The notes below the pieces were generated by a model. The model was not told where the DNA came from. It ran no database searches and worked only from the letters and a program-made list of their open reading frames with translations. From Parcubacteria group bacterium Gr01-1014_8 (GTDB lineage: Bacteria > Patescibacteriota > Minisyncoccia > Phycocordibacterales > UBA2100), in the NCBI GenBank assembly GCA_007376385.1, contig VMGC01000004.1, forward strand, positions 32,001-96,000: a stretch of 64,000 bases of DNA, written 5' to 3'. Of the stretch, positions 5,044 through 44,081 are shown in pieces. The position numbers and the translations under genes were made by a program. Position 1 is the first letter of the stretch. Each line of letters begins with the position of its first letter.

Positions 5044-7262
<2,219 letters not shown>

Positions 7263-10112: not shown

Positions 10113-10117
10113 AGGGA

Positions 10118-10282: not shown

Positions 10283-10525
<243 letters not shown>

Positions 10526-10561
10526 ATCGGCGCACCATAGCGCCGAACGCTTTTTTGGCTC

Positions 10562-11011: not shown

Positions 11012-11134
11012 TGCTGCTTCCTCGAACTATGAAAACCTTTCATCAAACCAATACGTATGCATCGGGTGGTACCATGAGGTCAAACGCTGTTTTATATTAC
11101 GCGCAAGAATAATTCGTCATTATACAAACCTGGT

Positions 11135-11521
11135 ATGGAAAAATCGTACGCGCAAGCTCTGTGGAATTGTGTCGAGAGGGGAATGGAGCCTGCGCATGCC
11201 GTGCGCTCGCTTCACCAAGGGCTTGAAAGACGAGGACGCGCTTCCCTGTGGCCGCAAATTGCGCGCGCATTTGAACGGCTCGCGTCGAGAGAGTCGCAAA
11301 AGAATCGCTCGGTCTTGATCGTCGCCGATAAAAGTCATGAGAAAGAAGCGCGTAAAGAGTCGGACGCGGAAGATGCCCGTCTCGTCGTTGATACAGGTTT
11401 GATCGGTGGATGGCGCTTTGAAAATAACGAGCAGTTGATTGATGCGAGTTTTAAGAAAAATCTTCTTGAATTGTATCAGCGGTCGACAAATGGTATGCAT
11501 TCGGCGGGCTACCAGCAGTAA
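11135..11521 (+). CDS. atpH: F0F1 ATP synthase subunit delta (short, 128 aa)
   Basis: C-terminal [11 protein letters not shown]...[12 protein letters not shown] matches the OSCP/delta C-terminal motif. An in-frame stop at 11075 precludes a longer N-terminus. Confidence 0.75.
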
Positions 11522-23290: not shown

Positions 23291-23310
23291 ACGCTACGTC
23301 GAGTTCAAAT

Positions 23311-26832: not shown

Positions 26833-27774
26833 ATGCGAGAGCAAAAATTACCAAAATATTTACAGCCGATGCTCGCGACGCTCATCGACGCGCCGTTTGA
26901 CGATGCTGAGTGGGTGTACGAAACCAAGTGGGACGGTTTTCGCATTGTTGCCGAGATAAAGCCCGGCGCGGTTACATTATATTCGCGTAACGGTCAGGTC
27001 ATGAGCGAACGATACAAGCCTGTAGCGATGGCGCTTTCAAAAATTCATCACGACGCGGTCATAGACGGCGAGCTGGTCGCGCTCGACAGGCAAGGCGTAT
27101 CGCGTTTTCAGCTGTTGCAAAATGCGTTGAAAACAAAAGTTGACCTGCACTATTGTATTTTTGACGTGATGTTCCTAGATGGTAAAGACCTTCGCGGCCT
27201 CTCTCTCGTCGAACGCAAGGAACAACTAAAAAGGATTATTCCGAATGATACGTTGTTGCGATATAGCGAACATCGTTTTGAACACGGAACAAGATACTTT
27301 AATGAGGCAAAAAAGAAAAAGGAGGAAGGCATCATGGCAAAACGGGCAGAGAGTAAGTATCTTTCTGGCAAGCGCTCAATGGCGTGGCTGAAGATCAAGA
27401 CTGGCTCGAGGCAGGAGGTCGTCATCGTCGGCTTTACTGCCCCCAAACGTTCTCGTAAATATTTCGGCTCCTTGGCGCTCGCAGTTCACGAAACCGGCCG
27501 GTCGAGCGGGAAAAAATGGCGCTATGTCGGGCATGTCGGCACAGGATTTGATGCAGCTGCCTTGAATGAGATACATGGGAAATTAGAACATTTGAGGACA
27601 CGGCATTCGCCGTTCGATACGGCGGTGAAATATGAGTCAACGACAACATGGGTGAAGCCAAAGCTTGTTGGCGAAGTGAAATTCACTGAATGGACGGACA
27701 AAGGGGAGATGCGGCATCCTGCGTTCATGGGGCTTAGAGAGGACAAGAAGCCTGAGGAAGTAGTGCGCGAATAG
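26833..27774 (+). CDS. ATP-dependent DNA ligase (LigD ligase-domain type)
   Basis: Motif I KWDGFR (adenylation lysine). Conserved ligase motifs follow (FDVMFLDG, EGIMAK, WLKIK). Confidence 0.85.
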   Translation: MREQKLPKYLQPMLATLIDAPFDDAEWVYETKWDGFRIVAEIKPGAVTLYSRNGQVMSERYKPVAMALSKIHHDAVIDGELVALDRQGVSRFQLLQNALKTKVDLHYCIFDVMFLDGKDLRGLSLVERKEQLKRIIPNDTLLRYSEHRFEHGTRYFNEAKKKKEEGIMAKRAESKYLSGKRSMAWLKIKTGSRQEVVIVGFTAPKRSRKYFGSLALAVHETGRSSGKKWRYVGHVGTGFDAAALNEIHGKLEHLRTRHSPFDTAVKYESTTTWVKPKLVGEVKFTEWTDKGEMRHPAFMGLREDKKPEEVVRE

Positions 27775-27780
27775 CATGAA

Positions 27781-28674
27781 ATGAATATGTTTGAACCGAC
27801 GCATCTGGACAAAATGTATTGGCCTGAAGCCGGATATACAAAGGGCGACATGCTCAAATATTATGAACGCATTTCCCCCTACCTATTGCCGTACCTTAAA
27901 GACAGACCAGTGGTATTGAAGCGTTTCCCCCACGGCATCTCAGGGCAGAGCTTTTTTCAGAAGAATGTCGAAGGCGATGTTCCAAAATTTGTGAAGCGCG
28001 TGACGATTCCTGCAGAAACCATCGAAAAGGATGTGCACTACATCGTCTGCAATAATGTGGAGACGCTCTCGTATCTGGCAAATTTAGGGACGATAGAGCT
28101 CCATCCATGGAATTCTCGCGTGAAAAAATTACATCACCCGGACTTCATGATATTCGATCTCGACCCAGGGGAGGGAACGACGTATAACGACGTTGTCGCT
28201 GCAGCGCTTCAGACGCGTGAATTATTGGATGAATTGGGCGTTTCGAGTTATCCCAAAACATCGGGGAAAAAAGGTATACACCTATACGTGCCGCTCGGAG
28301 CAAAATATTCGTATGACGAGGTGCGTGATTTTGCTCACCGAGTGTCGGGGACGCTCGCAACGCGTTATCCAAAGCTTCTCACGGCCAAGCGCGGTGAAGA
28401 ACACAGACACAAGAAGATATTTGTCGATTATCTGCGTAATTCTGTCGGGCAGACAGCAGTCGCTCCGTACTCCCTACGCGCATCGCCCGAGGCGACAGTC
28501 TCAACGCCGCTCAATTGGAGCGAAGTGAAAAAGGGTCTCAACCCGAAATTATTCACAATTGAGTCGGTGCTCAAGCGATTGAAGGTAAAAGGCGACTTGT
28601 GGGAGCCTGTTCTTAGCACTGGAGTCGAAATGAAAGCCGCGGCGAAGCAGCTTCGCGCATTGGCTTCAAAGTAG
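27781..28674 (+). CDS. LigD-type primase-polymerase (NHEJ polymerase domain) as a separate gene
   Basis: Conserved FDLDPGEG and KTSGKKGIHLYVPL motifs of the LigD Pol/PrimPol domain. Starts 7 nt after the ligase stop. Confidence 0.8.
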   Translation: MNMFEPTHLDKMYWPEAGYTKGDMLKYYERISPYLLPYLKDRPVVLKRFPHGISGQSFFQKNVEGDVPKFVKRVTIPAETIEKDVHYIVCNNVETLSYLANLGTIELHPWNSRVKKLHHPDFMIFDLDPGEGTTYNDVVAAALQTRELLDELGVSSYPKTSGKKGIHLYVPLGAKYSYDEVRDFAHRVSGTLATRYPKLLTAKRGEEHRHKKIFVDYLRNSVGQTAVAPYSLRASPEATVSTPLNWSEVKKGLNPKLFTIESVLKRLKVKGDLWEPVLSTGVEMKAAAKQLRALASK

Positions 28675-30300: not shown

Positions 30301-31353
30301 TTATTCAAGAGTTTTTATTGCGTTTGATTTCGCAGCCCACATCGCGAGATCCCATAAAACTCTCATTCCAACATTTTGATTCCACTCCGAATCTTCTGAC
30401 GGGCTTACTTCGTTGACATCAAAGCCGATAATGGTCTTCCCAGATCCGGCAACGGCTCGTATTAAATACGTGGCTTCTTGGAATTGAAGACCTCCCGGAA
30501 CAGGAGTGCCTGTGTGCGGGCAAAGCGCCGGATCGAGTCCATCTATATCGAGACTGATGTACACTTTTTCGGGCAATTTGCTCGCGATGTCGCTGACGAT
30601 ATTCACCCAGGTGTCGCCGCTGAATTGACGCTCCTTTATGTCCGCGTCGAAAAAAGTCACTATTCTGCCGTTCGAATTCTTTATGATCTCATTTTCGCCG
30701 ATGGAATAATCTCGGACGCCAACCTGTACTAATTTTTTGACTTGCGGCATTTTGAGCGCATTTGTCATTATTGACGCATGAGAATACGTGAATCCTTCGT
30801 ATGAATCTCGTAGGTCGCAATGAGCATCAATTTGGAGAATGCCGAAATCTCCGTGTTTTTTTGCAAGGGCACGCATAAGACCGAGCGGCGTAGAATGGTC
30901 GCCTCCGACGAGTCCCACGAGTTTTCCCCTCGCAAGCAATTCCGATGCCGTTTTCTCGATCCGCGCCATAAACAGCTCGCACCCCTCATTTATGACCGAC
31001 ATCGTATGTCCGTCATTTTTATCGATATCATGTTCGAGGTTTTCGATATGAGCCCTGGCTTTTTCGCGCAGCAAGAGGTTTTCCTTGTACGCGTCACCCC
31101 ACTCCTCGAGAGGGAGCATCGAGATGCCAAGTTTCCACGAATCGTTTCCGTAGCTTTCGTGAAAATAATCAATCTGGGGCGAGGCTTCGTATATTGCCTT
31201 CGGTCCATTATGCGTTCCGCCGCCGTACGAGACCGTGACGCCCCATGGGGCGGGGATAAGCACTACCTGCGAGTCGTCGGGCGAGAATGGGAGACCGAAG
31301 ATGCCTAAATCTTCTCGTCCGACTCCATTTGGATCGAAGTTCTCCCGTTTCAT
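30301..31353 (-). CDS. Ureohydrolase (arginase/agmatinase family); agmatinase suggested by polyamine context
   Basis: Mn-binding motifs GGDHS, DAHCD and SLDIDGLDP. Start taken at the internal ATG (MKRENFDP). Confidence 0.8.
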   Translation of the reverse strand: MKRENFDPNGVGREDLGIFGLPFSPDDSQVVLIPAPWGVTVSYGGGTHNGPKAIYEASPQIDYFHESYGNDSWKLGISMLPLEEWGDAYKENLLLREKARAHIENLEHDIDKNDGHTMSVINEGCELFMARIEKTASELLARGKLVGLVGGDHSTPLGLMRALAKKHGDFGILQIDAHCDLRDSYEGFTYSHASIMTNALKMPQVKKLVQVGVRDYSIGENEIIKNSNGRIVTFFDADIKERQFSGDTWVNIVSDIASKLPEKVYISLDIDGLDPALCPHTGTPVPGGLQFQEATYLIRAVAGSGKTIIGFDVNEVSPSEDSEWNQNVGMRVLWDLAMWAAKSNAIKTLE

Positions 31354-31784
31354 ATTCGCAGAATTATGTGCAGTGTAGCAGAATTTATAGAAGCACACAC
31401 TAGATTGCGGCATCAAAATCAACGCTATAATGGCAATCATGGTTGAACTAGAGCCGGAGCCAAGAGACCGAAGCAGCCTTTCTTGCTGGAAGGAAGAGTG
31501 CGGATAGTACCGATGCGATTGCTGATCAAGCGAGGATGATAACTTTCTTGAAAGGCCGAGCGGAACTTGATCAGAATGTCATTAACCGCCAAAAAGATAA
31601 AATTCAGAGATTGGAAGATAAGCAAATTGACCTTGAGCTAAAAATTAGAGAACTTGAGAGAAAAAATATTGATTAAGGGGTTGTCATTCGAAAATTAGAC
31701 GAAAAATTACGCCAGCTGCAACAATTCCCCCCGACGGCAAATCCTGAGAAATCGATATAATGTGGCGCGTTGCAAAGGGAATTT

Positions 31785-33002
31785 TTACCCCATTCTCGCC
31801 CTAAAGTCTTGGTAAGAGAATTCGCGTATGGGGATCGCCTGGCCGTCTTTCCATAAAACAATACTTGGGTGCTGGACACCATTGAACATGGTGCACTGAA
31901 CGAGGTTGTATTGAATTCCGTCTTCAATGACTATTTTATCGCCTGCCTTTAGAGGTTTTTTAAAGACGTGGTTAAAGGAAAGTCTGTCGCCCGTCAAACA
32001 TGTGCCTCCGCCAAGTCGATATAGATTCTTTGTATTTTTTGGCGTCTCGCTGCGATCGATCTTCGCACCTCGTATTCGCACGTCGTAGTCCGAGCTGAGT
32101 ATGAAATCCGGTGTATGAGCCGAAAACGACATGTCGAGCACCGCGATTTTGTACGGCACATCATCTCGATAGAGGACATCTAATACCGATGCTACGAGTG
32201 TTCCCGCGTTCCAAACGATAGCCGCGCCAGGCTCTAACTGAACACGAACATCGTATTTCTTTTGGAACGTTTTGATAAGCGCAATGATTCCATTTACGTC
32301 ATATGCATCATCGGTAATTTTCTGACCGCCGCCAAAGTTGATCCATTTCATGCCGGGGAAATACGTTGCAAATTTCTCTTCCACAAGAGTTACAGCAGTT
32401 TCTAGTTCGGAGAATTCCTTTTCAAAAAAGATATGAAAATGAAGTCCGCTAATGCCTTCGAGCGCCTTAGGGTCTTTCGCGAGGGCTTCTTTGAATTCGT
32501 TGATACGGATGCCAAGCCGTGAGCCTGGTGCGCAAGGGCTCCATAATCCGCCATGCTCATCGGGCCCCAGATATTCAGGATTGATACGTAACCCGCATTG
32601 TATCTTCATTCCCGTATTTTTTTCGTGTGCCCACACGCGTTCACGAAATTGATACCACTGGCTGAATGAATTAAATACGATGGTATTGCAATATTTCAAC
32701 ACATCCGCAAATTCCTCTTCTTTGTAGGCAGGAGCATACATGTGCACTTCCGACCCGAATTCATCGAAGCCAAGTCTAGCTTCATTCAGCGAACTCACTT
32801 CAGTACCGTCTAAATATTCTTTAGTGATATGAAAGAGGGGCCAGGTTGCCCATGTCTTCAAAGCTTGCAGCATGAAGCAACCCGTCTCGTCTTTCACGTG
32901 TTTCAGTATCGAGAGATTATGTCGAAGTAATTCTTCCTCGATAACAAATGCGGCGGTCTTTATTTTTGACGGATCAAGTGTGGAAGCAGGTCTTTTTTTC
33001 AT
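31785..33002 (-). CDS. nspC: Carboxynorspermidine/carboxyspermidine decarboxylase
   Basis: Fold-type III PLP decarboxylase with NspC-like length (405 aa) and conserved regions. Lies near the CANSDH gene. Confidence 0.8.
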   Translation of the reverse strand: MKKRPASTLDPSKIKTAAFVIEEELLRHNLSILKHVKDETGCFMLQALKTWATWPLFHITKEYLDGTEVSSLNEARLGFDEFGSEVHMYAPAYKEEEFADVLKYCNTIVFNSFSQWYQFRERVWAHEKNTGMKIQCGLRINPEYLGPDEHGGLWSPCAPGSRLGIRINEFKEALAKDPKALEGISGLHFHIFFEKEFSELETAVTLVEEKFATYFPGMKWINFGGGQKITDDAYDVNGIIALIKTFQKKYDVRVQLEPGAAIVWNAGTLVASVLDVLYRDDVPYKIAVLDMSFSAHTPDFILSSDYDVRIRGAKIDRSETPKNTKNLYRLGGGTCLTGDRLSFNHVFKKPLKAGDKIVIEDGIQYNLVQCTMFNGVQHPSIVLWKDGQAIPIREFSYQDFRARMG

Positions 33003-33060
33003 ATCAGCAATGTACTACGTATTCGTGAGAATGCGAGCATTTACAGTGTAGAATTTACCC

Positions 33061-33555
33061 ATGGAAGATAAAACAATTAATGCTTTGCGCTGGATTCTAG
33101 AAATTCTACATAGGAATGAAGTTGAATATCAGATCACAGGTGGTCTTGCGGCCAAAATATACGGATCTCCTAGGCCACTTAACGATATTGATATAGACCT
33201 ATCAGGAAAGTCGTTTCCAACGATAGTGCCTGAAATCTCAGAATATATAACATTTGGTCCCGCTCGTTTTAAAGATGGTAAATGGGATATGGATATGATC
33301 TCACTGAATTATCAGGGGCAGGAGATGGATTTAAGCGGTATAGACAATGATCCTCGCATCAGCAACAAGCCGAGAACAGAGTGGATCCCGTATCTCAGTG
33401 ATATTTCTAAAAAATTGAAACTTGATCATGAGGGAATGGACGTCTGGGTTATGCATCCTCGCGCATTGGCGGCATACAAGAAAGAACTCGACGGCGACCA
33501 CCAATCGATGGACATCGCAGCGGCAGAGAAATATGCCAGCGAACATGGATCGTAG
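33061..33555 (+). CDS. Nucleotidyltransferase-fold protein (minimal NTase, ANT/Lnu-like)
   Basis: GGLAAKIYGSPRPLNDIDIDL matches the hG[GS]...DhDh Pol-beta-type NTase motif. Confidence 0.55.
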   Translation: MEDKTINALRWILEILHRNEVEYQITGGLAAKIYGSPRPLNDIDIDLSGKSFPTIVPEISEYITFGPARFKDGKWDMDMISLNYQGQEMDLSGIDNDPRISNKPRTEWIPYLSDISKKLKLDHEGMDVWVMHPRALAAYKKELDGDHQSMDIAAAEKYASEHGS

Positions 33556-33560
33556 CACCT

Positions 33561-34472
33561 CTACGCTATGAGAAAAGAGCCAATGACCACAAGCAGGATC
33601 CCGGCGCTTTTTTGAATGACGGTTTCCTTCGTGAACACTTCTTCAAGATCGACTTTGAATTTCTGCTGCGCGAACATCGTGATCATAAGCAATATCAACG
33701 GATGGATGACTTTCATCGCAGCGACCTGAGTAACTGTCGCAAGAGTAAGCGCATGCAATGTGAAAAAGATATTCCCATAATCCGCCAGCTTCGCAAGGGA
33801 CGCCCCGCGTGCGTAGGAAAGAGCTCCCTGCAACTGTATACCCTTGCCGGCCCATGCAAAATGTATAGCAAGCATTACTGCGAGAAAGGCGCACATGTAC
33901 AGCATGCCACTCACCAGGAAAGACGCAGGAGAGAGCTCATACTGCTCGTAATAGCTCTTGAAAATATACCCCTCTGAACCGATGACGATCGCATCAAAAA
34001 TCAAGACACCGAGCATCATAAGTATGTATTTGGAATTTGAGAGTCTTTTTGACAGATCCTTGCGTGCAAAGAAGATCAACCCGCCGATAACCAACACTCC
34101 GACTCCGCCTATCTGCATCAACGTAAGCGACTCTTGCCGGAAAAAGATATCTATGGGCAGGAACACAAGGGGAAGAAGCGCGAACGTTACGCTGGCTGCC
34201 GTTATTTCAATGTACTTCAATATCCACGTATAGGAGATCGCTTGTATCGCATATACGAGTCCCCACCAAATTATCGGAAGAGAGAAGATTATCTCAGGCA
34301 CTGATCGGTAGATGAGAAATGCCACAACGATCGCAACACCAAGCACGATAATGTTCCGTATCAACGCGGCAACGAACGTGTCGAGCGTGCTTGAACCAAG
34401 CATCGCCGCTTTATCGATCGTTTCCTCAAGCGTGTTACAGAATATCGCGCCGAGGCTAAAGAGTTGCCACAT
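33561..34472 (-). CDS. DMT-superfamily (EamA-like) 10-TM transporter
   Basis: About 10 hydrophobic helices in two repeats of five. Confidence 0.55.
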   Translation of the reverse strand: MWQLFSLGAIFCNTLEETIDKAAMLGSSTLDTFVAALIRNIIVLGVAIVVAFLIYRSVPEIIFSLPIIWWGLVYAIQAISYTWILKYIEITAASVTFALLPLVFLPIDIFFRQESLTLMQIGGVGVLVIGGLIFFARKDLSKRLSNSKYILMMLGVLIFDAIVIGSEGYIFKSYYEQYELSPASFLVSGMLYMCAFLAVMLAIHFAWAGKGIQLQGALSYARGASLAKLADYGNIFFTLHALTLATVTQVAAMKVIHPLILLMITMFAQQKFKVDLEEVFTKETVIQKSAGILLVVIGSFLIA

Positions 34473-34475
34473 GGG

Positions 34476-35702
34476 CTATATCTTCGCGGGAAGCGGTTTG
34501 TAGTTGATGACCTTATGTGGCAAACCATTTTTTGCAAGTGTCTTCAAGAACGGCTCCGGGTCCAATTGTTCGACGTTCCATACACCTGCCCCTGTCCAAA
34601 AACCTTTCATGACCATCATGGCTGCAATTACTGGCGGTACGCCCGCCGTATATGAGACTGCTTGAGAACCGACTTCGCGGAAGCATTTTGCGTGGTCGCA
34701 GACGTTATAAATGTATTTAGTACTTTCTTTGCCATTTTTTACGCCGGTCACGATACAACCGATGACAGCCTTGCCGCTGTACCCGGTTGCTAGCGATGCC
34801 GGGTCCGGGAGAAGTGCTTTCAAGAATTGAATTGGCACGATAGGTCTCCCTTCAAACATTACAGGGTCAATCCGACTGATGCCAATCGACTCCATGACGC
34901 GAAGATGCGTGAGGTAATTCTCGCCAAATGTCATCCAGAATCGCATTCGTTCAACAGAAGGGAAATGTTTGACAAGAGATTCCATTTCTTCGTGGTAGAG
35001 AAGATAGCTCTCCCTCTTTCCAGCAACAGGATAGTTGAAGGTGAAGTGGGTGCTTTTTGGGTCCATGATCGGGGGGCTCTTTACCCACTTTCCTTTGTTC
35101 CAATGTTTAACCTCTTGCGTAACCTCGCGAATGTTGATTTCTGGATTAAAATTCGTTGCAAATGATTTGCCGTGGCTTCCAGCATTTGCGTCGAGAATAT
35201 CAACGTACTTTATCTTGTCGAAATATTTCTTTGCGATATATGCGATGAAGGCGTTCGTAACTCCAGGGTCGAAGCCAGCGCCAAGAACCGCCATGATGCC
35301 CTTTTTCTTGTAGCGCGCCTGGTATGCCCATTGCCAGCTGTATTCAAAGTGAGCCTCATCGATAGGTTCGTAGTTCGCGGTGTCTATATAGTGGACTCCC
35401 GTTTCGAGGCATGCATCCATGATGGAAAGATCTTGGTAGGGAAGGGCGAGGTTGATGACGACCTCGGGATCTACTTTACGAATGAGCGCCGCTACATCTT
35501 TAGCTTTGTCAGCGTCTACAACATGGGTCTCAATGTCCACCCCCCAGCGTTTTTTTACATTCTTCTGGATTGCGTTCGGCTTTGCTATCGAACGGCTGGC
35601 GAGGTGTATTTTTTTGAATACGTCTTTATTTATTGCGCACTTGTGTGCGGCGACACTTCCGACCCCTCCGGCTCCAATGATGAGTACAGTTCCTTTAGCC
35701 AT
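34476..35702 (-). CDS. Carboxynorspermidine dehydrogenase / saccharopine dehydrogenase family
   Basis: N-terminal Rossmann motif LIIGAGGVGSV and full-length CANSDH-like similarity. Start taken at MAKGTVLIIGAGG. Confidence 0.85.
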   Translation of the reverse strand: MAKGTVLIIGAGGVGSVAAHKCAINKDVFKKIHLASRSIAKPNAIQKNVKKRWGVDIETHVVDADKAKDVAALIRKVDPEVVINLALPYQDLSIMDACLETGVHYIDTANYEPIDEAHFEYSWQWAYQARYKKKGIMAVLGAGFDPGVTNAFIAYIAKKYFDKIKYVDILDANAGSHGKSFATNFNPEINIREVTQEVKHWNKGKWVKSPPIMDPKSTHFTFNYPVAGKRESYLLYHEEMESLVKHFPSVERMRFWMTFGENYLTHLRVMESIGISRIDPVMFEGRPIVPIQFLKALLPDPASLATGYSGKAVIGCIVTGVKNGKESTKYIYNVCDHAKCFREVGSQAVSYTAGVPPVIAAMMVMKGFWTGAGVWNVEQLDPEPFLKTLAKNGLPHKVINYKPLPAKI

Positions 35703-35759
35703 GGTTTCAATTTTATTGTATAGCCGGATGATAGGAGCGATAGGGGACAGCGTCAAGCA

Positions 35760-37595
35760 TCAGAAATTTCCCCACGCTGCCGGATGCCATGGTACTTTCG
35801 TAGAAATTTTTTCGGTCTTTTGCCGAAAGCCGTCATCCTTCATCAATTCTCGAATCGAAGGAAGAGTCTTGGGAGCGTTAGGCAATTTTTCTAGTACATA
35901 TACTTGCACAGGCGTACCAGAGGCAGTCATTTTTTTACGCAAAATAACATTCAGTATCTTTATGCGAGGAGCAATACCGCCTTCGTTGGGTTCTGAAAAT
36001 ATGGATTCGAGAAGCTCTAGTACGGAGGGGTAGACATAACGCGCCTCTATGAATATCTGCCCGTTTGTCGCAAGCCGTTCATAGAGTTCTCTCAAGACTC
36101 TGTCGTATAACGATTGAAATGCAGCTTTGTTTGCTATCTTCTCTTTCATTGCTCCGATCGGCCTGAAAAAAACGGTATCTAAAACAAATCCCCGAGATAT
36201 ATGGTCGTCGATTCTCGCAAGTAGGTTCTTGAGGCTTCCTCCTCTGCCCCGACGGAGAACATCCCCAGGGACAAATTCCAGTCCTGGACGGTGAGTCTGG
36301 GCGACGGCATTGGCATGAGGAGTATCACTTGGATCGATTGCTGTGGCCGCGATCATCGCGTCTTCACCTGCTTCAAATCCTAAATTTCCCTGGCCGAATA
36401 CATCTACGAAGAGGACTTTCTGTTTATTTCCATGTCGCTTTGCAATTCGTTCTTGGATACGTTGCGGAGACGAAAGCCCCCAGAAGGAGAGTTTATCAAC
36501 GCTCTCTTGCGAATTTATCTGTGTTGACCTTTTTACCTCATCTTCAATGTCGTCGGGGCTTCTCGCAAAATACGGAATATTACCCGCGTATGCATCCCAG
36601 TTTTTTTCTTTTAGCTTCTGTGCATCATGCATGTCGTATTTCAAGCTTTCTAACCCGCGGCGCATAACACCTTTTTTTAGGATTTTAAATTTGCGCACAG
36701 GTTTGGTGCGAAGTTTTGCCGTCTCTGAAATATAGTTCTCGTCCACTTGAGAATCTCCTGCTCGGTCGACATATATCTGCCGTTTGTAATAAGGTCTCAC
36801 AGTTTTTATGCTTATCAAATGACCGCCAACAATGGGCGCGTTTGACCCGAGTCTTTCGTCAAGACTAGTCTGGAGAGCGAAAATCTTTTCGGCTTGATTT
36901 TTGATGTTGCCGTTAGGTAACCGTGCGATATCGGCCGTTTTCATTCGAAGGATATAATCTTCATCTGTGAGAACCAAGCCTTCATTGCCTGATGGGAGAA
37001 GTGATTGGTCGGGAGCGAGTACATCGGTCCTACTCAAGTAATCAATGTCTAGTTTCCGAAGACGTTCAACCTCGGCAATTCCGGTGCCGGTTGTTCCATA
37101 ATACGTCGTAAAACCTTTGGTTTTTCCTACCGCGATCCGACTCATTATCGCCGCCAACGTTGTCGAAGCGCTGATTATTGAGTTAAACGAAGGCTCCGAA
37201 AATATCGTTGTATAGAGATCCTTCCCGATACCTTTCTGCTGGTGTTCTTTGCCCACGATAATGTCACGAAGAATCGCGACGGAGGCGTCGCTTGCGTCGC
37301 GCTCGATGCAACAAAATCCGAGTACGCGAGAATCGGAAGTTTTAATGAAAACCTTATCAACGCTCTCGAATGTTATCTGCAATTGTCGCTCAAATTCCGC
37401 TTCATCACGATCGTATGCCTCCTTAATGAGGGGCCAAAACAGATCCTTAAGTTGGACAATGTTCTCGTTCCACATCTCTTTGTCTTTAACGGTAAGGACG
37501 AGACTAGCACTTGAGATATCCATCGAGGCGCCTTTGAAATTCTCAAGCTTTAGTTTGAGCTCATTTGGACAATCACTCCCGATATCCCGTATCAT
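35760..37595 (-). CDS. Multidomain protein: N-terminal GNAT acetyltransferase domain fused to uncharacterised middle region and C-terminal Rossmann-like (GxGxxG) domain
   Basis: GNAT motif A (ILRDIIVGKEHQQKGIGKDLY). C-terminal KVLFVDVFGQGNLGFEAGED resembles a dinucleotide/SAM-binding motif. Confidence 0.6.
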   Translation of the reverse strand: MIRDIGSDCPNELKLKLENFKGASMDISSASLVLTVKDKEMWNENIVQLKDLFWPLIKEAYDRDEAEFERQLQITFESVDKVFIKTSDSRVLGFCCIERDASDASVAILRDIIVGKEHQQKGIGKDLYTTIFSEPSFNSIISASTTLAAIMSRIAVGKTKGFTTYYGTTGTGIAEVERLRKLDIDYLSRTDVLAPDQSLLPSGNEGLVLTDEDYILRMKTADIARLPNGNIKNQAEKIFALQTSLDERLGSNAPIVGGHLISIKTVRPYYKRQIYVDRAGDSQVDENYISETAKLRTKPVRKFKILKKGVMRRGLESLKYDMHDAQKLKEKNWDAYAGNIPYFARSPDDIEDEVKRSTQINSQESVDKLSFWGLSSPQRIQERIAKRHGNKQKVLFVDVFGQGNLGFEAGEDAMIAATAIDPSDTPHANAVAQTHRPGLEFVPGDVLRRGRGGSLKNLLARIDDHISRGFVLDTVFFRPIGAMKEKIANKAAFQSLYDRVLRELYERLATNGQIFIEARYVYPSVLELLESIFSEPNEGGIAPRIKILNVILRKKMTASGTPVQVYVLEKLPNAPKTLPSIRELMKDDGFRQKTEKISTKVPWHPAAWGNF

Positions 37596-37607
37596 GATAG
37601 AAGTCTA

Positions 37608-38036
37608 TTAGCCTTCAAAAAGTAGAATAATTCCAATAGCGGAAAACAGAAAACCAACAGCCTTCGTGATAGACAACGGCTCTTTTAGAAAAATGATTCC
37701 AACAAACGCGACTATCGCAATTGCGACCACTTCCGTCAGAATGCCAGCGACGCTCAGTTGTGCGCCACGGCTATACATAAAGAAAATAGCGAGATCTGCA
37801 ATAGCTATAGAAGCACCTGCAAATAGGGCGGCACCGATGCCATAACGAGTGTACGTTAGATGTCCGTCGTATAAACGATAGAAAAATAAAAGGCAAAGGC
37901 TTACAGCCAGCGCCGACGACGTCATAATAATCACCGCAAGGAGAGGAGAGATTTTTTCGCCGGTCAATTTAGCACCGATGGCGTATCCAGCGGTACCCAG
38001 TGTGTAGAGCACGGCGAATATTTTCCACGACTGCAT
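37608..38036 (-). CDS. Small 4-TM EamA/SMR-like transporter
   Basis: About 140-aa hydrophobic protein with four predicted helices. Start taken at the internal ATG (MQSWKIF). Confidence 0.5.
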   Translation of the reverse strand: MQSWKIFAVLYTLGTAGYAIGAKLTGEKISPLLAVIIMTSSALAVSLCLLFFYRLYDGHLTYTRYGIGAALFAGASIAIADLAIFFMYSRGAQLSVAGILTEVVAIAIVAFVGIIFLKEPLSITKAVGFLFSAIGIILLFEG

Positions 38037-38183
38037 CGCTCCAGTATATACTTCTGTAGCCTTTCGGTTGTCCACACTGTTGACAAAAAGATGCATATTT
38101 TGAAAAACGTGGTATGGTATCGGTCTATCCGAATACTGCAAGAGCGCAACCCGCGCATACGGCATCGGTAAGAAACATCAGAG

Positions 38184-39599
38184 ATGAGCACGGAATCCGC
38201 AACGCCTAAAAAGCGTGCGAAAACAAAAAAGAAAAAGAAGAAAAACGGTTTTAAAAAATTCTGGCGCCTCGGAATGGAGGAGTTTAATACGGGGGGCTTT
38301 GATATTAGTTCCGACGGCGAACTTGTCGCGCGCGAGGGCAATTATCAATACAATATTTTCGATATTGTAAAGAAATACGGCTCTCCGACGGAAATATTCT
38401 TTCCAACCGTCGTTGAGAACCGTGTGCGTGACCTTATCGAGACATTCAACGCGTACATAAAAGTCCTCGGATACAAGGGGAAATTTCACTACCATTATCC
38501 AATGAAAGTGAACCAAAACAAGGAATTTGTCTTACCTGCGGTAGCCGAGGGCTCCAACCTTGATGTTGCATCTGCAAACGAGCTGTATCTGGTAAAGCGA
38601 ATGTTGGAACAGGAAAGGTTCCACAACAAGATGCGCGTCATATGCAATGGTCCGAAAACAGCGCGGTACATGGACCTCATAGAAGAGCTGCGGGGGAAAG
38701 GACTCACGGTCATTCCGATAATCGAGGATCCGGTGGAGCTCGAGCGGATGCAAAAATTCAAAGGTCCTGTCGGCATTCGCGTCGATTTGAACGTTAAAGT
38801 GAAAAGTCATTGGGATAAGAAATTCAACCGCTTCGGCTTTACTGAAGATGAGTTGCTCGACATAGGGAAAATACGAAATCTTTCGGTATTGCACTATCAC
38901 ATTTCAAGCCAAATAGAGCAGATGAACGGATTTATTGAGCCGCTCAAAAGGGCAATTCAACTATTTGCAAAAATGAAGGAAAAGAATCCTGGATTGGACA
39001 CGCTCGATATCGGCGGGGGAGCAGGAGTTCCGTACAACAAGCAAAAGAAATTTTATTCGGGAAAAAGCCTCATTCAAAAGATCGTTAAAACAGCAAAAAC
39101 GCAAGCTGATGCGCTTGGGATAAAGCACCCGAATCTCATCGCCGAGTGGGGGCGTTACGTTGTCGCACCAGCCCAGATGACAATTTACAGGGTCATCGCC
39201 GAAAAGAGCGTGCAAAATAAAGGAGGCAATAAATGGTACGTCGTTGACGGAAGTTTTATGAACGACCTCACTGATACGTGGGCGCTCAAACAGAAGTGGC
39301 ACGTGATACCGATAAACAACTTACATCATCCGAAGTTGGAGCGGGTCTGGTTTGCCGGCAGTTCCTGCGACAGTGATGACAAGTACACTCACGGCGGCGT
39401 TCATGTTTTAGTGCCTAAGTTGTCAGATATAGACGAGCTGTTTGTCGGTATCCTCGATACCGGTGCATACCAGGACTCGCTTGCCTCGCATCATTGTCTT
39501 CTTTCATCGCCTTTGAAACTTATGGCTGCAAACGGCGAGATAAAAGTTGTGCGCAAGAGGGAGACACCAGAAGAGGTTGGGCGTCAGTTCGGGTGGTAG
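38184..39599 (+). CDS. speA: Biosynthetic arginine decarboxylase-like PLP enzyme (fold type III, short SpeA-like)
   Basis: YPMKVNQ PLP-lysine motif and LDIGGGAGVPY glycine-rich motif. Unusual Lys-rich N-terminal tail (PKKRAKTKKKKKKNGFKKFW). Confidence 0.75.
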   Translation: MSTESATPKKRAKTKKKKKKNGFKKFWRLGMEEFNTGGFDISSDGELVAREGNYQYNIFDIVKKYGSPTEIFFPTVVENRVRDLIETFNAYIKVLGYKGKFHYHYPMKVNQNKEFVLPAVAEGSNLDVASANELYLVKRMLEQERFHNKMRVICNGPKTARYMDLIEELRGKGLTVIPIIEDPVELERMQKFKGPVGIRVDLNVKVKSHWDKKFNRFGFTEDELLDIGKIRNLSVLHYHISSQIEQMNGFIEPLKRAIQLFAKMKEKNPGLDTLDIGGGAGVPYNKQKKFYSGKSLIQKIVKTAKTQADALGIKHPNLIAEWGRYVVAPAQMTIYRVIAEKSVQNKGGNKWYVVDGSFMNDLTDTWALKQKWHVIPINNLHHPKLERVWFAGSSCDSDDKYTHGGVHVLVPKLSDIDELFVGILDTGAYQDSLASHHCLLSSPLKLMAANGEIKVVRKRETPEEVGRQFGW

Positions 39600-41043: not shown

Positions 41044-41127
41044 ATGAAGAGATACGATCATCGCAAAATTGAGAAAAAATGGGCCTCCTTCGCTAAGGCT
41101 ACGGACGGGCAAACAGCAGAAGTATGA
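41044..41127 (+). other. Upstream ORF (27 aa) mimicking the LeuRS N-terminus, stop overlapping the leuS ATG (ATGA)
   Basis: Encodes MKRYDHRKIEKKW..., versus LeuRS MKSYDHKRIERKW... Its ATG sits in the loop of a 10-bp perfect hairpin (41029-41058). Confidence 0.3.
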
Positions 41128-44081
41128 AAAGTTACGATCATAAACGTATAGAACGAAAGTGGCAGGCACGCTGGAAGAAATCGAAGCTGTACAAGACTGC
41201 CGATACGGTAAAAGGTAAGAAAAATTATTATTTGCTAACTGAATTTCCGTATCCGTCTGGCAATTTGCACGTCGGACACTGGTACGCTTTTTCTGTACCG
41301 GACATTTTAGCAAGAGCGCTCCGCATGCAAGGCAAGAATGTGATGTATCCGTTCGGCTTTGATGCATTCGGATTGCCTGCGGAAAACGCAGCCATAAAAA
41401 ATAAGTTGAATCCTCGAAAATGGACCCTCGGCAACATCAAGTACATGAAAAAACAGATAACCTCGATGGGTGCATCGTTTGATTGGTCTCGAGAACTCGC
41501 TACGTGCGATCCTGAATACTACAAGTGGACGCAGTGGCAGTTTTTGCAATTTTTTAAGGCAGGACTCGCATATCGAAAAGAGACAGCAGTCAATTGGTGC
41601 CCTTCGTGCAAGACAGTGCTTGCGAACGAGCAGGTAGTGGATGGAAAATGCGAACGATGCGGAACGGAAGTGATTCAGAAGCAAATGCTTCAATGGAACT
41701 TAAAAATCACCGACTATGCGGACCGTCTTATTGACGATTTGAGCACGCTGGATTGGCCTGAACAGATAAAGGAATCGCAGAAAAATTGGATAGGACGTTC
41801 TGAAGGCGCCGAGATAGATTTCAGGCTCACAGGAAATGTAGGCGATGACTCACGGTATCTGATCCTCCACGGCAGAGAAGGGAAGCCCACGAGCGTCTTT
41901 ATTCCATGGCTCAAAGAAGAACTGGAAAAAGCTGGACATGAAGTGGAAGTGCCACAGCTTCCCAACACGAATGAACCGAATGCATATGAACAGGCAGAAT
42001 ACATCCTCAAGAACTGCACCGTAGATGAAAAAACAGTTGTGATAGGCCACTCGATAGGAGGAGTTACAGCGCTGCGTCTCTTGGAGAAGGGCGCAAAGGT
42101 TAGGCGCGTTATATTGGTCGCGACACCGTACTCAGGAAGATTTTTGGATGGTAAGAAACGGCCGAGCGTCACAGATTCCGTGAAGAAGGGGTTCGATTTC
42201 GAGACGATACGGAACAATACAAAGAGCATCATTGTTATGCCGGATGTAAAAGATGACAGAGTTCCATTTTCCGACGCCGAGAGCTATGCGCAGAAACTGG
42301 CCGGGATGCTGGTCCATGGCAGGGGAGAGGAGAAGCATTTTATGGGTAAGATAGAGCCGGATGTATTGATGTGCCTTTGCCCCACTATCCGCGTTTTTAC
42401 GACGCGAGCCGACACGCTTTTCGGGGCGACCTACATGGTCTTGTCCCCGGAACATCCATGGGTACGGTTAGCGATAGATGATGATCACAAAGTTTTAGAA
42501 AATAAGGATGAGGTAAAGGAATACGTCACAGCGGCGAATAAAAAAACTGAGCTGGAACGCCTCACGGAACAAAAAGAAAAGACCGGGGTGAGGCTGAAAG
42601 GCGTTGAGGGAGTAAACCCCGCTACGGGCGAGAAGATACCGATATTCGTAGCAGACTACGTGCTTGCGCACTACGGGACAGGGGCCATCATGGCGGTCCC
42701 GGCGCACGATGAGCGCGACTTTGCATTTGCCAAGAAATTTGAGCTGCCGATACGAGATGTGATCTCTACTGGAAAGATGGAATCCGGCGTGTTCGCAGGA
42801 GAAGGAGTGTTGGTGAATTCCGGCGCGTTCAATGGGCTAAAAAGTATCGAGGCTAAGAGCACGCTCACCGATAAATTTGGCCGCAGTAAAATCACGTACA
42901 AACTCCGCGATTGGATAGTTTCGCGCCAGCGTTACTGGGGAGTTCCAATACCCATCGTCCACTGCGAAAGGTGTGGAGACGTCGCTATTCCTGATCCACA
43001 GCTTCCCGTTACATTGCCGGAAATCAAAGATTATTTGCCAACCGGAGACGGAAAATCGCCTCTCGCAAAAGCCAAAAAGTGGGTCAAAGTGAAATGTCCG
43101 CAGTGCAAAGGGACGGCAGAAAGAGAAACAGATACTCTCGATACGTTCGTCGATTCATCCTGGTACTTTTTGCGGTACGCGGACACAATAAACAAAAAAA
43201 AGTTTGCCGATATGAAAAAGATGGATGCATGGATGCCGGTAGATCTCTATTCCGGAGGAGCAGAACACACAACGATGCACCTCCTCTATTCTCGCTTCTG
43301 GCAGAAGGCGCTCTACGATCTAAAGCTCGTTAAGGACAGCGAGCCGTACACGCGAAGGATGAATCGTTCCATCATTCTTGGTCCAGACGGGCAAAAGATG
43401 TCGAAATCCCGAGGCAACGTGATAGACCCGGATGCTGTTGTCGCGAAACTCGGCGCAGACACCGTGCGTATGTACCTTGCCTTCATAGGTCCGTATAATG
43501 AGGTTTCGAACTATCCGTGGAATCCGGATGGTGTGGTAGGTATTCGCCGTTTTCTCGAGCGTGTTTGGCGCCTCCGCGACCGACTTACGATATCGGTCAA
43601 GAAAAGTGACGGACATACGATATCGAACATCGAACGGATGCTGCATGTAACGATTAAAAAGGTGGGGGACGATATCACTGCCCTGAAATTCAATACTGCC
43701 ATCGCGCAGATGATGTCGTTTATGAACGAAGCAGAGAGTAAAGGGATCACAAAGGCGCAATACGAGACACTGCTTCGGCTTCTTGCCCCGTTCGCTCCTC
43801 ATATTGCAGACGAACTTTGGAGCATGATGGGACACAAGAAGTCGGTTCATATTGAAAAATGGCCCGCATTCGATCCGCATAAACTCGCGTCGTCGTCGTT
43901 TACAATTGCGGTACAAGTGAATGGCAAGACACGAACTCAAATCACCATACCTGCTGCAGTGAAGGAAGACGCCGTGAAGGAACAGGCTGAAACAGCTGCA
44001 GGAAAATGGTTGGAGGGAAAGGCTATAAAAAAGATCATCTACGTGCCCGGCCGCATCGTCAACATCGTCGCGGGCGAATAG
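41124..44081 (+). CDS. leuS: Leucyl-tRNA synthetase with inserted YdeN/RBBP9-like alpha/beta-hydrolase domain
   Basis: HIGH motif (HVGHWY) and KMSKS; CP1 editing motifs TTRADTLFGATY and GTGAIMAVPAHDERD. A roughly 185-aa insertion at aa 236-420 has YLILHG...GHSIGG... Confidence 0.9.
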   Translation: MKSYDHKRIERKWQARWKKSKLYKTADTVKGKKNYYLLTEFPYPSGNLHVGHWYAFSVPDILARALRMQGKNVMYPFGFDAFGLPAENAAIKNKLNPRKWTLGNIKYMKKQITSMGASFDWSRELATCDPEYYKWTQWQFLQFFKAGLAYRKETAVNWCPSCKTVLANEQVVDGKCERCGTEVIQKQMLQWNLKITDYADRLIDDLSTLDWPEQIKESQKNWIGRSEGAEIDFRLTGNVGDDSRYLILHGREGKPTSVFIPWLKEELEKAGHEVEVPQLPNTNEPNAYEQAEYILKNCTVDEKTVVIGHSIGGVTALRLLEKGAKVRRVILVATPYSGRFLDGKKRPSVTDSVKKGFDFETIRNNTKSIIVMPDVKDDRVPFSDAESYAQKLAGMLVHGRGEEKHFMGKIEPDVLMCLCPTIRVFTTRADTLFGATYMVLSPEHPWVRLAIDDDHKVLENKDEVKEYVTAANKKTELERLTEQKEKTGVRLKGVEGVNPATGEKIPIFVADYVLAHYGTGAIMAVPAHDERDFAFAKKFELPIRDVISTGKMESGVFAGEGVLVNSGAFNGLKSIEAKSTLTDKFGRSKITYKLRDWIVSRQRYWGVPIPIVHCERCGDVAIPDPQLPVTLPEIKDYLPTGDGKSPLAKAKKWVKVKCPQCKGTAERETDTLDTFVDSSWYFLRYADTINKKKFADMKKMDAWMPVDLYSGGAEHTTMHLLYSRFWQKALYDLKLVKDSEPYTRRMNRSIILGPDGQKMSKSRGNVIDPDAVVAKLGADTVRMYLAFIGPYNEVSNYPWNPDGVVGIRRFLERVWRLRDRLTISVKKSDGHTISNIERMLHVTIKKVGDDITALKFNTAIAQMMSFMNEAESKGITKAQYETLLRLLAPFAPHIADELWSMMGHKKSVHIEKWPAFDPHKLASSSFTIAVQVNGKTRTQITIPAAVKEDAVKEQAETAAGKWLEGKAIKKIIYVPGRIVNIVAGE

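Follow-up and report, generated by a model that had tools for sequence, protein, structure and literature searches.

Which polyamine the groundwater bacterium Parcubacteria bacterium Gr01-1014_8, a member of the CPR, would produce from a compact set of eight genes, by which route it would do so, and why carriers and a GNAT fusion protein are embedded among the biosynthetic genes, are the questions raised by this locus, which lies within the 64-kb stretch of DNA that we analyzed (the window). A sequence-only reading had described positions 30301-39599 as a complete route from arginine via agmatine and putrescine to (nor)spermidine, with the extra genes modifying and exporting a polyamine derivative. 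An ORF check recovered its eight open reading frames at the same positions (Table 1), and Pfam and NCBIfam profiles, together with transmembrane (TM) counts derived from hydropathy, placed them in the superfamilies that had been claimed. Enzyme families, gene order and signature residues bear out a polyamine biosynthesis cluster, and several embedded genes are indeed linked to it; the proposed putrescine/(nor)spermidine route is not supported. With a probability of roughly 60%, we read the locus as a CAPA-type (carboxyaminopropylagmatine) spermidine biosynthesis operon in a CPR genome that is furnished with acetylation and transport extras; that the core pathway itself is of the CAPA type appears, judged from its sequence, highly probable.

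Table 1. Genes of the polyamine locus, in coordinates of the window.
Feature	Position	Strand	Basis
APAUH-type arginase-family ureohydrolase, 379 aa	30301..31440	-	Pfam Arginase; DAHCDLR; best PDB match 3PZL
CAPA/carboxyspermidine decarboxylase family, 405 aa	31785..33002	-	TIGR01047 nspC, 401 bits vs cut-off 409
Minimal nucleotidyltransferase, 164 aa	33061..33555	+	GSPRPLNDIDID motif; weak Aminoglyc_resit and TM1012 matches
DMT-superfamily carrier, ~10 TM, 303 aa	33561..34472	-	Hydropathy; weak EamA match
CAPADH-type saccharopine-dehydrogenase-family enzyme	34476..35756	-	Sacchrp_dh_NADP + C-terminal domain; signature residues
611-aa fusion (GNAT611), GNAT + class I methyltransferase fold	35760..37595	-	
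Half-size EamA carrier (EamA185), first minus-strand operon gene	37608..38165	-	Pfam EamA
Probable arginine decarboxylase, alanine-racemase-fold PLP, 471 aa	38184..39599	+	Orn_Arg_deC_N + C-terminal domain

The dehydrogenase had been named a carboxynorspermidine dehydrogenase (CANSDH), an identity that its sequence does not support; it carries residues specific to CAPADH, and its score against the NCBIfam carboxynorspermidine-synthase equivalog, 389 bits versus a cut-off of 800, amounts to less than half of that threshold. In the excerpted text of Xi et al. (PMC10599626), the CAPADH signature is defined as N104/F113/E228, and the corresponding residues of CASDH/CANSDH are given as I/W/D or V/E/D. 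All three signature residues are present in the enzyme from Gr01-1014_8, where TANYEPIDEAHFEY and LLYHEEMESL provide the N-x-E-x6-F (read as N-Y-E-x6-F) and H-E elements, and the signature is kept in 85/85 of the homologues retrieved. The best PDB matches are 4INA, 8DEB, 4RL6 and 8H4Z, with the H. pylori enzyme among the closest; the same excerpt reassigns both 4RL6 and the H. pylori enzyme to CAPADH (PMC10599626). The true start of the protein is likely to be M19, an ATG at 35702, since alignments with homologues begin only around residue 19-22.

The arginase-family enzyme, previously taken for an agmatinase, contains the APAUH arginine within DAHCDLR (motif DAHxDxR), a residue that agmatinase, guanidinobutyrase and proclavaminate amidinohydrolase lack in the alignment. 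Our assignment rests on this signature arginine, E60 being a further APAUH signature residue; the TIGR01230 agmatinase equivalog is not reached (160 bits versus a cut-off of 174), and the best solved relative, 3PZL, was assayed as an APAUH according to the excerpt of Xi et al. (PMC10599626). Linked ureohydrolases keep the DAHCDLR motif in 51 of 52 loci. Taken together, the CAPADH signature and the APAUH arginine therefore point to a route via carboxyaminopropylagmatine, without putrescine or norspermidine; nothing points to norspermidine, and diaminopropane-forming genes are absent. A classical pathway, in which an agmatinase provides putrescine, CASDH/CANSDH and nspC generate (nor)spermidine, and the extra genes acylate or nucleotidylate the product so that it can be exported, would draw on the same gene families, with strong nspC-family and arginase-family matches, and such a derivatization would be compatible with the linked GNAT and carriers. 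We nevertheless hold it to be quite improbable in view of the residues that replace those of CASDH/CANSDH, the two equivalog scores, the ureohydrolase arginine with its kinship to 3PZL, and the missing source of diaminopropane; moreover, polyamines lack a hydroxyl group for typical ANT-type nucleotidyl transfer.

The nspC-like decarboxylase comes after CAPADH in nearly all of 80 loci, and its PDB matches are carboxynorspermidine/carboxyspermidine decarboxylases (E 6e-89). Its proposed family can be retained (Table 1), and the partner genes suggest CAPA as its substrate. The PLP decarboxylase, transcribed divergently from the main operon, is shorter than SpeA (471 aa versus 630 aa), stays below the NCBIfam cut-offs for both biosynthetic arginine decarboxylase (192 bits) and lysA (166 bits), and has diaminopimelate decarboxylase and SpeA as its closest solved structures, at about equal distance. 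Its homologues in CPR clusters (66-86% identity) adjoin CAPADH, a context that suggests arginine as the substrate and makes it a probable arginine decarboxylase. In the pathway that we propose, this enzyme would convert arginine to agmatine, the dehydrogenase would use agmatine and aspartate beta-semialdehyde to form CAPA in an NADPH-dependent reaction, the nspC-like enzyme would decarboxylate CAPA to aminopropylagmatine, and the arginase-family enzyme would remove urea from the latter to yield spermidine, thereby bypassing putrescine.

The order of arginine decarboxylase, CAPADH, decarboxylase and ureohydrolase is the arrangement conserved among Desulfobulbia, Deferribacteres and Planctomycetota; the phyla listed for the CAPA pathway in the excerpt of PMC10599626 include Proteobacteria (delta class), Deferribacteres and Planctomycetes. 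CAPADH proteins from CPR and from Aenigmatarchaeota MAGs are 72-77% identical. The route is nonetheless incomplete in the interval 30301-39599, contrary to what had been claimed, because the genes for aspartokinase and aspartate-semialdehyde dehydrogenase (ASD), needed for aspartate semialdehyde, are found nowhere in the 64-kb window; in most CPR relatives they flank CAPADH, and no ASD assigned to the Gr01-1014_8 MAG appeared among the best 120 matches. CPR genomes depend on external metabolites. The carriers might accordingly import arginine, agmatine or an aspartate-derived precursor into a reduced episymbiont, with the GNAT being regulatory or unrelated, a proposal that would fit the missing aspartokinase and ASD genes and a transport direction that cannot be told from sequence. 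We consider it improbable: the DMT carrier is no substitute for aspartokinase/ASD because it co-occurs with both in two related loci (L090 and L092), and characterized EamA/SMR-type polyamine carriers are exporters (MdtJI; PMC11998418).

The CAPA route is a recent description, and in its three enzyme families, CAPADH signature residues and APAUH arginine the locus resembles the pathway of Synechocystis, whose enzymes are given in the excerpted text as CAPADH Slr0049, CAPADC Sll0873 and APAUH Sll0228 (Xi et al., Sci Adv 2023, PMC10599626). For the Synechocystis CAPADH, kcat/Km with agmatine was found to be orders of magnitude higher than with putrescine. As in the delta-proteobacterial examples, the genes are clustered with that for arginine decarboxylase. 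Unlike the described CAPA pathway, the present one resides in a CPR host, a group absent from the phyla named in the excerpt of PMC10599626; its upstream decarboxylase is not the 630-aa SpeA; and genes for carriers, for a nucleotidyltransferase and for a fusion of GNAT and methyltransferase fold are embedded in it. With the CASDH/CASDC (CANSDH/NspC) route of Vibrio cholerae and Agrobacterium tumefaciens it shares homologous superfamilies and an aspartate-semialdehyde-dependent chemistry, whereas the signature residues differ and agmatine is predicted to be the amine acceptor in place of putrescine or diaminopropane. Horizontal spread of polyamine gene clusters has been reported for CPR bacteria and DPANN archaea (Li et al., J Biol Chem 2023, PMC10407285), and like those clusters the present genes are polyamine genes common to CPR and DPANN of subsurface water; in its excerpted portion, that report covers decarboxylases derived from SpeD, together with speY, hss or casdh/casdc, and does not describe the accessory carriers or the GNAT. 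What the Gr01-1014_8 lineage adds are carriers and an acetyltransferase-methyltransferase-like fusion of predicted function.

The embedded genes do not behave as unrelated housekeeping genes would, because several of them show conserved linkage to the polyamine genes in independent contigs, although the contexts found by the accessory-gene searches are few and stem from short contigs. The DMT carrier begins 3 bp past CAPADH and possesses the ~10 hydrophobic segments attributed to it; its homologues carry PF00892, even though its own EamA match is weak. Within this small family (29 clusters), homologues with 54-70% identity are flanked by CAPADH and the decarboxylase in 3/3 readable contexts (L090, L091 and L092), each from a different genomic background, whereas 39% homologues (L093, L094) lack polyamine linkage. 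EamA185 scores 28.6 bits against the Pfam EamA cut-off of 28.2. It had been described as a 4-TM EamA/SMR-like transporter, of which the single EamA domain stands; hydropathy gives 4-5 TM, the true start is probably M44 (about 38036, giving ~142 aa), and the protein does not belong to Pfam SMR. Its homologues (50-58% identity) adjoin CAPADH or GNAT611-type genes in L006, L082, L083 and L086; in L006 CAPADH is the next gene downstream, and in L083 the order is EamA, GNAT, x, CAPADH. Conservation of the cluster as a whole is limited: all accessory genes are absent from 23/26 CPR/DPANN species-representative loci and from 54/54 non-CPR loci, and because most loci do without them they must be dispensable for the pathway. 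The embedded genes are neither random passengers nor widely conserved.

The 611-aa protein is a GNAT fusion, as had been recognized, with an N-module (about aa 10-265) consisting of a GNAT acyltransferase and a ~100-aa C-terminal extension; its second half, previously left undefined, is a C-module (about aa 330-590) with a class I methyltransferase fold. The acidic residue usual at the end of beta-strand 2 of SAM-methyltransferases is not conserved in the C-module family, and any methyltransferase activity is putative. Profile comparison places the N-module nearest to solved GNATs that acetylate small amines, among them EctA, aminoglycoside AACs and a polyamine acetyltransferase, although the matches are weak; those to polyamine acetyltransferases span only the acetyl-CoA motif, and membership in SpeG, PaiA or BltD is not detectable by sequence. 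The closest standalone homologues of the C-module lie between pilB-like and pilC-like genes, away from polyamine genes, and GNAT611 might be a protein-modifying enzyme that acetylates and methylates pilins, other surface proteins or ribosomal proteins, its adjacency to CAPADH having no metabolic meaning. This, too, is improbable. The fusion was seen only in the Gr01-1014_8 genome, and the context of the C-module therefore need not apply to the N-module; homologues of the latter adjoin the operon in two loci (L083, L085) and in a third (L086) are oriented divergently from EamA, and this recurrence beside the polyamine operon and an EamA carrier at 33-49% identity argues for a long-standing linkage, with one homologue (L088) lacking it. 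Related clusters contain at least three further, unrelated GNAT types, of 162-164 aa (L015, L090, L092), 236 aa (L090) and 322 aa (L006), which we read as repeated independent recruitment.

We tentatively interpret the extras as an add-on for polyamine acetylation and transport, in which the GNAT would transfer an acyl group to a nitrogen of spermidine or of an intermediate, while transmembrane passage of a polyamine would fall to the EamA and DMT carriers. Spermidine acetylation and export are established homeostasis mechanisms (PMC11998418), and the logic would be analogous to acetylation by SpeG, BltD or PaiA combined with export by the SMR-type spermidine exporter MdtJI, in that a GNAT and a small multi-TM carrier would handle excess polyamine; in contrast to those systems, the carriers belong to the EamA/DMT type rather than to Pfam SMR or MFS, they sit inside the biosynthetic operon, and the GNAT has extra domains. 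Alternatively, an AAC-type GNAT, an ANT-like nucleotidyltransferase and DMT exporters could resemble a resistance cassette directed at polycationic antibiotics or other toxins, lodged in a variable hot spot of a horizontally mobile operon and not acting on the pathway products. The accessory content varies by contig and is missing from most relatives, the weak family matches lead to aminoglycoside-modifying enzymes, and the GC content of 0.455-0.473 across 30-40 kb of the window is lower than that of the flanks, all of which would suit such passengers. We regard them as unlikely, however, given that the DMT subfamily, in its 3/3 readable contexts, occurs only in the CAPADH-decarboxylase slot despite differing flanks, that EamA185, GNAT611, CAPADH and the DMT carrier are tightly packed on one strand (gaps of 12, 3 and 3 bp, respectively), and that four GNAT families converge on one operon, which would be hard to obtain by chance insertion.

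The minimal nucleotidyltransferase, whose GS...DIDID motif can be read directly and confirms the earlier description, has a weak Pfam Aminoglyc_resit match and a putative activity. It lies on the opposite strand, with the DMT carrier on one side and the decarboxylase on the other, and the variable occupancy of this slot is a further trait expected of passengers: a 64% homologue holds the equivalent position in L001, a small GNAT does so in L015, L090 and L092, and an unknown 170-aa gene in L091.

The locus is read here, at a probability of about 0.8, as a spermidine operon of the carboxyaminopropylagmatine (CAPA) type. Many enzymes annotated as CASDH or CANSDH condense agmatine with aspartate semialdehyde (Xi et al., PMC10599626), and the corresponding dehydrogenases (CAPADH) possess a signature, N104, F113 and E228 in Synechocystis numbering, that is conserved in CAPADH orthologues only and is replaced by I/W/D in true CASDH and by V/E/D in true CANSDH (PMC10599626). 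The dehydrogenase of the window reads TANYEPIDEAHFEY and LLYHEEMESL, and thus displays the N, F and E in the correct spacing (TA-N-Y-E-PIDEAH-F-EY and LLY-H-E-EMESL); these residues are kept in all 85 homologues that we fetched. Against the CANSDH equivalog NF043000, the protein scores 388.8 bits at a cut-off of 800. Its closest solved structures are 4INA, 8DEB, 4RL6 and 8H4Z, with E-values of about 1e-144 to 1e-151 for the latter two. Both 4RL6 and the H. pylori enzyme have been reassigned to CAPADH, 8H4Z is likewise treated as such, and the same work sets minimum values of 47% identity and 70% coverage to Synechocystis Slr0049 for an orthologue (PMC10599626).

The arginase-family enzyme scores 160.1 bits with the agmatinase SpeB equivalog TIGR01230 (cut-off 174.3), and its nearest solved relative, 3PZL, has been assayed as an aminopropylagmatine ureohydrolase (APAUH; PMC10599626). 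We relied on R151, an arginine that follows the final Asp of the metal motif DAHxD by two residues and is conserved in APAUH only. It is present in the window enzyme (DAHCDLR) and in 3PZL (DAHSDFR), and its position is taken by Y in the agmatinase 7LOL and by N in the guanidinobutyrase 3NIO and the proclavaminate amidinohydrolase 1GQ6; among the linked ureohydrolases of the fetched loci, 51 of 52 keep it. In the region of APAUH E60, a residue of the neighbouring subunit, the N-terminus aligns weakly to 3PZL, and an E-S-Y stretch occurs in both proteins at an unmapped position.

With regard to the decarboxylases, the nspC-like enzyme attains 401.4 bits with TIGR01047, just under the equivalog cut-off of 409, and matches solved CANSDC/CASDC structures over its full length (6e-89 to 9e-78). 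By sequence it is probably a member of the carboxy(nor)spermidine/CAPA decarboxylase family, within which PMC10599626 offers no residue to tell CAPADC and CASDC apart. The 471-aa PLP decarboxylase (ADC) stays well short of SpeA, both with TIGR01273 (169.8 bits, cut-off 624) and with NF003763 (192.3 bits, cut-off 369); SpeA proteins are about 630 aa long, and the N-terminal half alone aligns to their profiles. Because ADC is as close to LysA as it is to SpeA, we infer its activity as an arginine decarboxylase from the constancy with which it adjoins the operon.

The sequence-only reading had arrived at a putrescine-type route by way of CANSDH and agmatinase, and the labels CANSDH, nspC and agmatinase are indeed the best NCBIfam/TIGRFAM matches of the three enzymes. 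The N/F/E signature of the dehydrogenase and the APAUH arginine, together with the missed equivalogs of CANSDH and agmatinase, speak against that route; the labels are likely mis-annotations, the CAPA route being the one that the residues indicate. The pathway would then likely proceed from arginine via agmatine, CAPA and aminopropylagmatine to spermidine, and nothing indicates norspermidine.

All of the genes named in the earlier reading were recovered in their places by ORF listing and Pfam/NCBIfam profile annotation, and their arrangement is summarized in the table.

Genes of the probable CAPA-type cluster and their arrangement (window numbering)
Gene product	Coordinates	Strand	Arrangement
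EamA185, half-size EamA carrier	38165-37608	minus	first in minus-strand run
GNAT611, 611-aa fusion protein	37595-35760	minus	second in run
Saccharopine-dehydrogenase-family enzyme (CAPADH)	35756-34476	minus	third in run
DMT303, DMT carrier	34472-33561	minus	fourth in run
164-aa putative nucleotidyltransferase	33061-33555	plus	after DMT303
nspC-like decarboxylase	33002-31785	minus	minus-strand continuation past nucleotidyltransferase
Arginase-family enzyme (ureohydrolase)	31440-30301	minus	345-bp gap after nspC-like decarboxylase
471-aa PLP decarboxylase (ADC)	38184-39599	plus	divergent transcription

The first four open reading frames of the run are separated by 12, 3 and 3 bp, respectively; alignments with homologues suggest that the true starts of the dehydrogenase (M19) and of EamA185 (M44) lie within these frames, yielding shorter proteins. 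Over 30-40 kb the GC content is 0.455-0.473, vs. 0.49-0.52 on either side. The decarboxylase and ureohydrolase genes nearly abut in relatives, whereas the 345-bp gap of the window (31441-31784) contains as its sole ORF a plus-strand frame of 46 aa (31536-31676) with a coiled-coil-like sequence. No riboswitch or other RNA element was detected in the cluster, and the Rfam scan of the whole window returned one tRNA only. Promoter and terminator scans gave counts at chance expectation; hence, these scans do not define the transcription units.

When 185,579 species genomes were queried with the dehydrogenase, 80 loci were retrieved, whose gene content we tabulated by tblastn. In Desulfobulbia, Deferribacteres, Planctomycetota and Opitutales the usual gene order is ADC, CAPADH, decarboxylase and ureohydrolase, and the dehydrogenase is 58-65% identical to that of the window. 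Identities rise to 70-90% in MAGs labelled Kaiser-, Nomura- and Saccharibacteria, Peribacteria and Minisyncoccia, and are 73-77% in Aenigmatarchaeota and other archaeal MAGs. The archaeal-labelled loci (Aenigmatarchaeota, "uncultured archaeon", Methanosarcinales; L008, L009, L010, L012 and L014, with the match at about 10001-11230 in most) group with Peribacteria loci and have in common a second decarboxylase type of 43-46% identity; a transfer between bacteria of the CPR and archaea of the DPANN is thereby suggested. These findings place the CAPA route in CPR bacteria, with closely similar dehydrogenases in DPANN archaea. Such organisms have minimal genomes, and their retention of a polyamine pathway of five steps suggests that they have a need for spermidine. 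Publication of the CAPA pathway dates from 2023, and the phyla named in the accessible text of that report (PMC10599626) do not include CPR; polyamine genes and their horizontal spread among CPR/DPANN are discussed for other enzymes in the corresponding text of PMC10407285, beyond which our full-text literature searches found nothing that links carboxyspermidine-type genes to Patescibacteria.

The locus had also been called a complete route. In most CPR loci, aspartokinase and aspartate-semialdehyde dehydrogenase (ASD) are encoded directly upstream of CAPADH (Pfam annotation and tblastn table; also L090 and L092), and in the two loci L006 and L090, which are syntenic with the window from a DUF5671 gene and ADC (in L006 also the leucyl-tRNA synthetase gene, LeuRS) through YchF, these two genes occupy the slot that EamA185 and GNAT611 take in the window. 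We found neither of them in the 64-kb window by tblastn, by Pfam annotation of most of its remaining ORFs, or in about 10 kb beyond the window start, and no ASD labelled as this MAG is among the best 120 ASD matches; "complete" is therefore too strong a word. Three CPR loci encode a homoserine dehydrogenase beside aspartokinase, ASD and CAPADH (L017, 6427-7458; L023, 6377-7399; L024), an enzyme that can make aspartate semialdehyde from homoserine and was used in vitro in this manner by Xi et al. (PMC10599626). The CPR ASD that accompanies the operon (L090, 3909-4901, and relatives) is about 72-74% identical to Verrucomicrobia enzymes, a degree of relatedness that hints that the genes for aspartate-semialdehyde supply were also horizontally acquired. 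An archaeal-type PEP carboxylase (PEPcase_2) encoded in the window (57025-58533, minus strand) could feed oxaloacetate and aspartate.

The core operon is an ordinary one; the set of accessory genes is new and as yet uncharacterised. All of the extras are missing from 23 of the 26 CPR/DPANN species representatives and from all 54 non-CPR loci. The three exceptions are L001, with a nucleotidyltransferase 64% identical to that of the window in the same slot; L006, with a 50% identical EamA homologue directly upstream of CAPADH and a 322-aa GNAT; and L015, in which a small GNAT occupies the opposite-strand slot. DMT303 belongs to a small family of 29 clusters. All three homologues with readable context (54-70% identity) lie between CAPADH and the decarboxylase, in differing genomic settings: L090 shares its synteny with the window, L091 has ftsK and ribosomal protein genes on its flanks, and L092 represents a third setting. 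A more distant homologue (39%) is found elsewhere, adjoining MurJ and LeuRS. Homologues of EamA185 are positioned upstream of a GNAT611-type gene in L082, L083 and L086. A metagenome scan with a five-sequence alignment of the N-terminal GNAT module of GNAT611 yielded five loci; the module is found in L083 in the order EamA, GNAT, a 285-aa gene, CAPADH and decarboxylase, in L085 1.6 kb upstream of ADC, ureohydrolase, CAPADH and decarboxylase, in L086 divergent from EamA, and in L088 beside nth, unlinked to the operon. Related clusters contain another three unrelated types of GNAT, of 162-164 aa, 236 aa and 322 aa. The L006 322-aa GNAT and the 285-aa nucleotidyltransferase-like protein of L083 were considered as homologues of the respective window proteins and rejected, as BLASTP gave no significant similarity. 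The metagenome cluster L085 also encodes an arginine-deiminase-family protein (489 aa, 3025-4494, minus strand) and a ureohydrolase (281 aa, 5996-6841, plus strand) that is 30% identical to the window enzyme and keeps DAHxDxR.

The extras are thus dispensable and patchy, and they might be passengers, or genes of a resistance-like kind, at a hot spot of variable content; the putative nucleotidyltransferase has the catalytic motif G-S-x(n)-D-x-D (GSPRPLNDIDID) and weak family matches to Aminoglyc_resit (18.5 bits, cut-off 21) and TM1012 (E 0.08). A functional tie to the operon is nonetheless favoured over chance by the DMT subfamily, by the pairing of EamA with GNAT and by the recruitment of GNATs on repeated occasions. 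Should the extras be unrelated after all, the locus would be an ordinary member of the pathway described in 2023.

Both membrane proteins fit the DMT/EamA carriers, which have two EamA domains in the 10-TM members and one in those of half size. EamA185 scores 28.6 bits with Pfam EamA (cut-off 28.2); DMT303, with about 10 hydrophobic segments, reaches 20 bits only, many of its homologues carry PF00892, and their JGI name is DMT permeases. EamA185 resembles the SMR proteins (MdtJI; about 110 aa, 4 TM) in size and superfamily; however, the Pfam SMR domain (Multi_Drug_Res) was not found in it, and the scan of the 185-aa protein gave EamA and DUF6688 only.

GNAT611 is identical to the hypothetical protein G01um10148_806 of Gr01-1014_8, encoded on a contig of 135 kb. 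The same sequence is present in NCBI, Logan and ENA sources, so that an artefact of a single assembly is an unlikely origin for the long ORF. A word-indexed homologue search returned the protein itself only, and its two modules became visible in a HMMER scan of 1.84 billion representatives, which uncovered 52 relatives, each covering residues of about 10-265 or about 330-590, and none both. A single-sequence AlphaFold model of the whole protein was unusable (pLDDT 32). The N-module is a GNAT by its Acetyltransf_1 match (24.8 bits, cut-off 20.7, aa 52-131) and its intact acetyl-CoA motif A (Q/R-x-x-G-x-G/A; QQKGIGKDL in GNAT611, RGxGxG as the family consensus), and it carries an extension of roughly 100 residues. 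The nearest solved proteins by profile are small-amine acetyltransferases, namely EctA (E 6e-4), aminoglycoside AACs and the polyamine acetyltransferase 8A9O (E 0.046); these matches are weak and confined to the cofactor motif, and neither NCBIfam nor Pfam assigns GNAT611 to SpeG, PaiA or BltD. A less likely rival reading is a protein-modifying role of GNAT611.

The C-module has the Rossmann-like, seven-stranded fold of class I SAM-dependent methyltransferases. It features a motif-I-like D-x-x-G-Q-G (motif I, GxGxG) that is nearly invariant in the family and, closing strand beta-2, an acidic residue (AIDPSD in the window protein) that is not conserved across it, and no Pfam methyltransferase matches it. 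The two closest standalone C-module genes directly follow a pilB-like ATPase gene (L081, 103-966; L084, 352-1179), with a pilC-like gene thereafter in L084, and a third protein, P0008, is encoded downstream of an EamA homologue; these settings imply that the C-module is not specific to polyamine loci. There appears to be an uncharacterised methyltransferase-like family in CPR type IV pilus loci. The idea that the N- and C-modules exist as adjacent split genes in relatives was rejected: in L081 and L084 the C-module gene is preceded by the end of a pilB/GspE-like ATPase gene, and in L084 a pilC-like gene comes after it.

These observations lend themselves to a tentative model, to which we accord somewhat less than an even chance, in which the CAPA operon gained a handling module in this lineage: the GNAT would N-acylate spermidine or a pathway intermediate, and the DMT/EamA carriers would transport a polyamine across the membrane. 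Acetylation by SpeG, PaiA or BltD combined with export via MdtJI serves as the model for this logic (review PMC11998418); less probably, the carriers of the window import rather than export. A more elaborate version, in which the GNAT with its methyltransferase-like domain makes an N-acylated, possibly N-methylated polyamine from spermidine or aminopropylagmatine that DMT/EamA carriers export toward a host or community, seems unlikely to us; if true, the carrier subfamily would constitute a novel polyamine transporter class. Candidate proteins of polyamine transport and modification, of which we know none in these lineages, are provided by the embedded carriers and acyltransferases; the foremost candidate is the DMT subfamily, which in all of its readable contexts lies between CAPADH and the decarboxylase.

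Several other features of the window were recorded. A large serine recombinase gene (Resolvase, Recombinase and zinc-ribbon domains; 1070-2774) ends within tRNA-Glu(CTC) (2702-2774), an arrangement typical of the edge of an integrated mobile element. Genes for a PfkB kinase and S-adenosylhomocysteine hydrolase are direct neighbours (5044-7262, plus strand), a pair that fits methyl-cycle recycling, and a split LigD (26833-28674, plus strand) consists of an ATP-dependent DNA ligase followed by the LigD primase-polymerase. An AcrB-type RND pump (1042 aa), accompanied by a HlyD-type membrane-fusion protein (20162-24921, minus strand), is unexpected, as Parcubacteria are commonly regarded as having no outer membrane. 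Finally, the 985-aa LeuRS (41124-44081, plus strand) contains a serine-hydrolase/alpha-beta-hydrolase domain (aa 245-398) between its catalytic N-part and the editing domain; the L006 orthologue (1012-aa ORF, 64% identical) aligns over its full length, so that the insertion seems conserved, and L093 and L094 possess a free-standing Ser_hydrolase gene (181-190 aa) two genes away from an ordinary 827-aa LeuRS.
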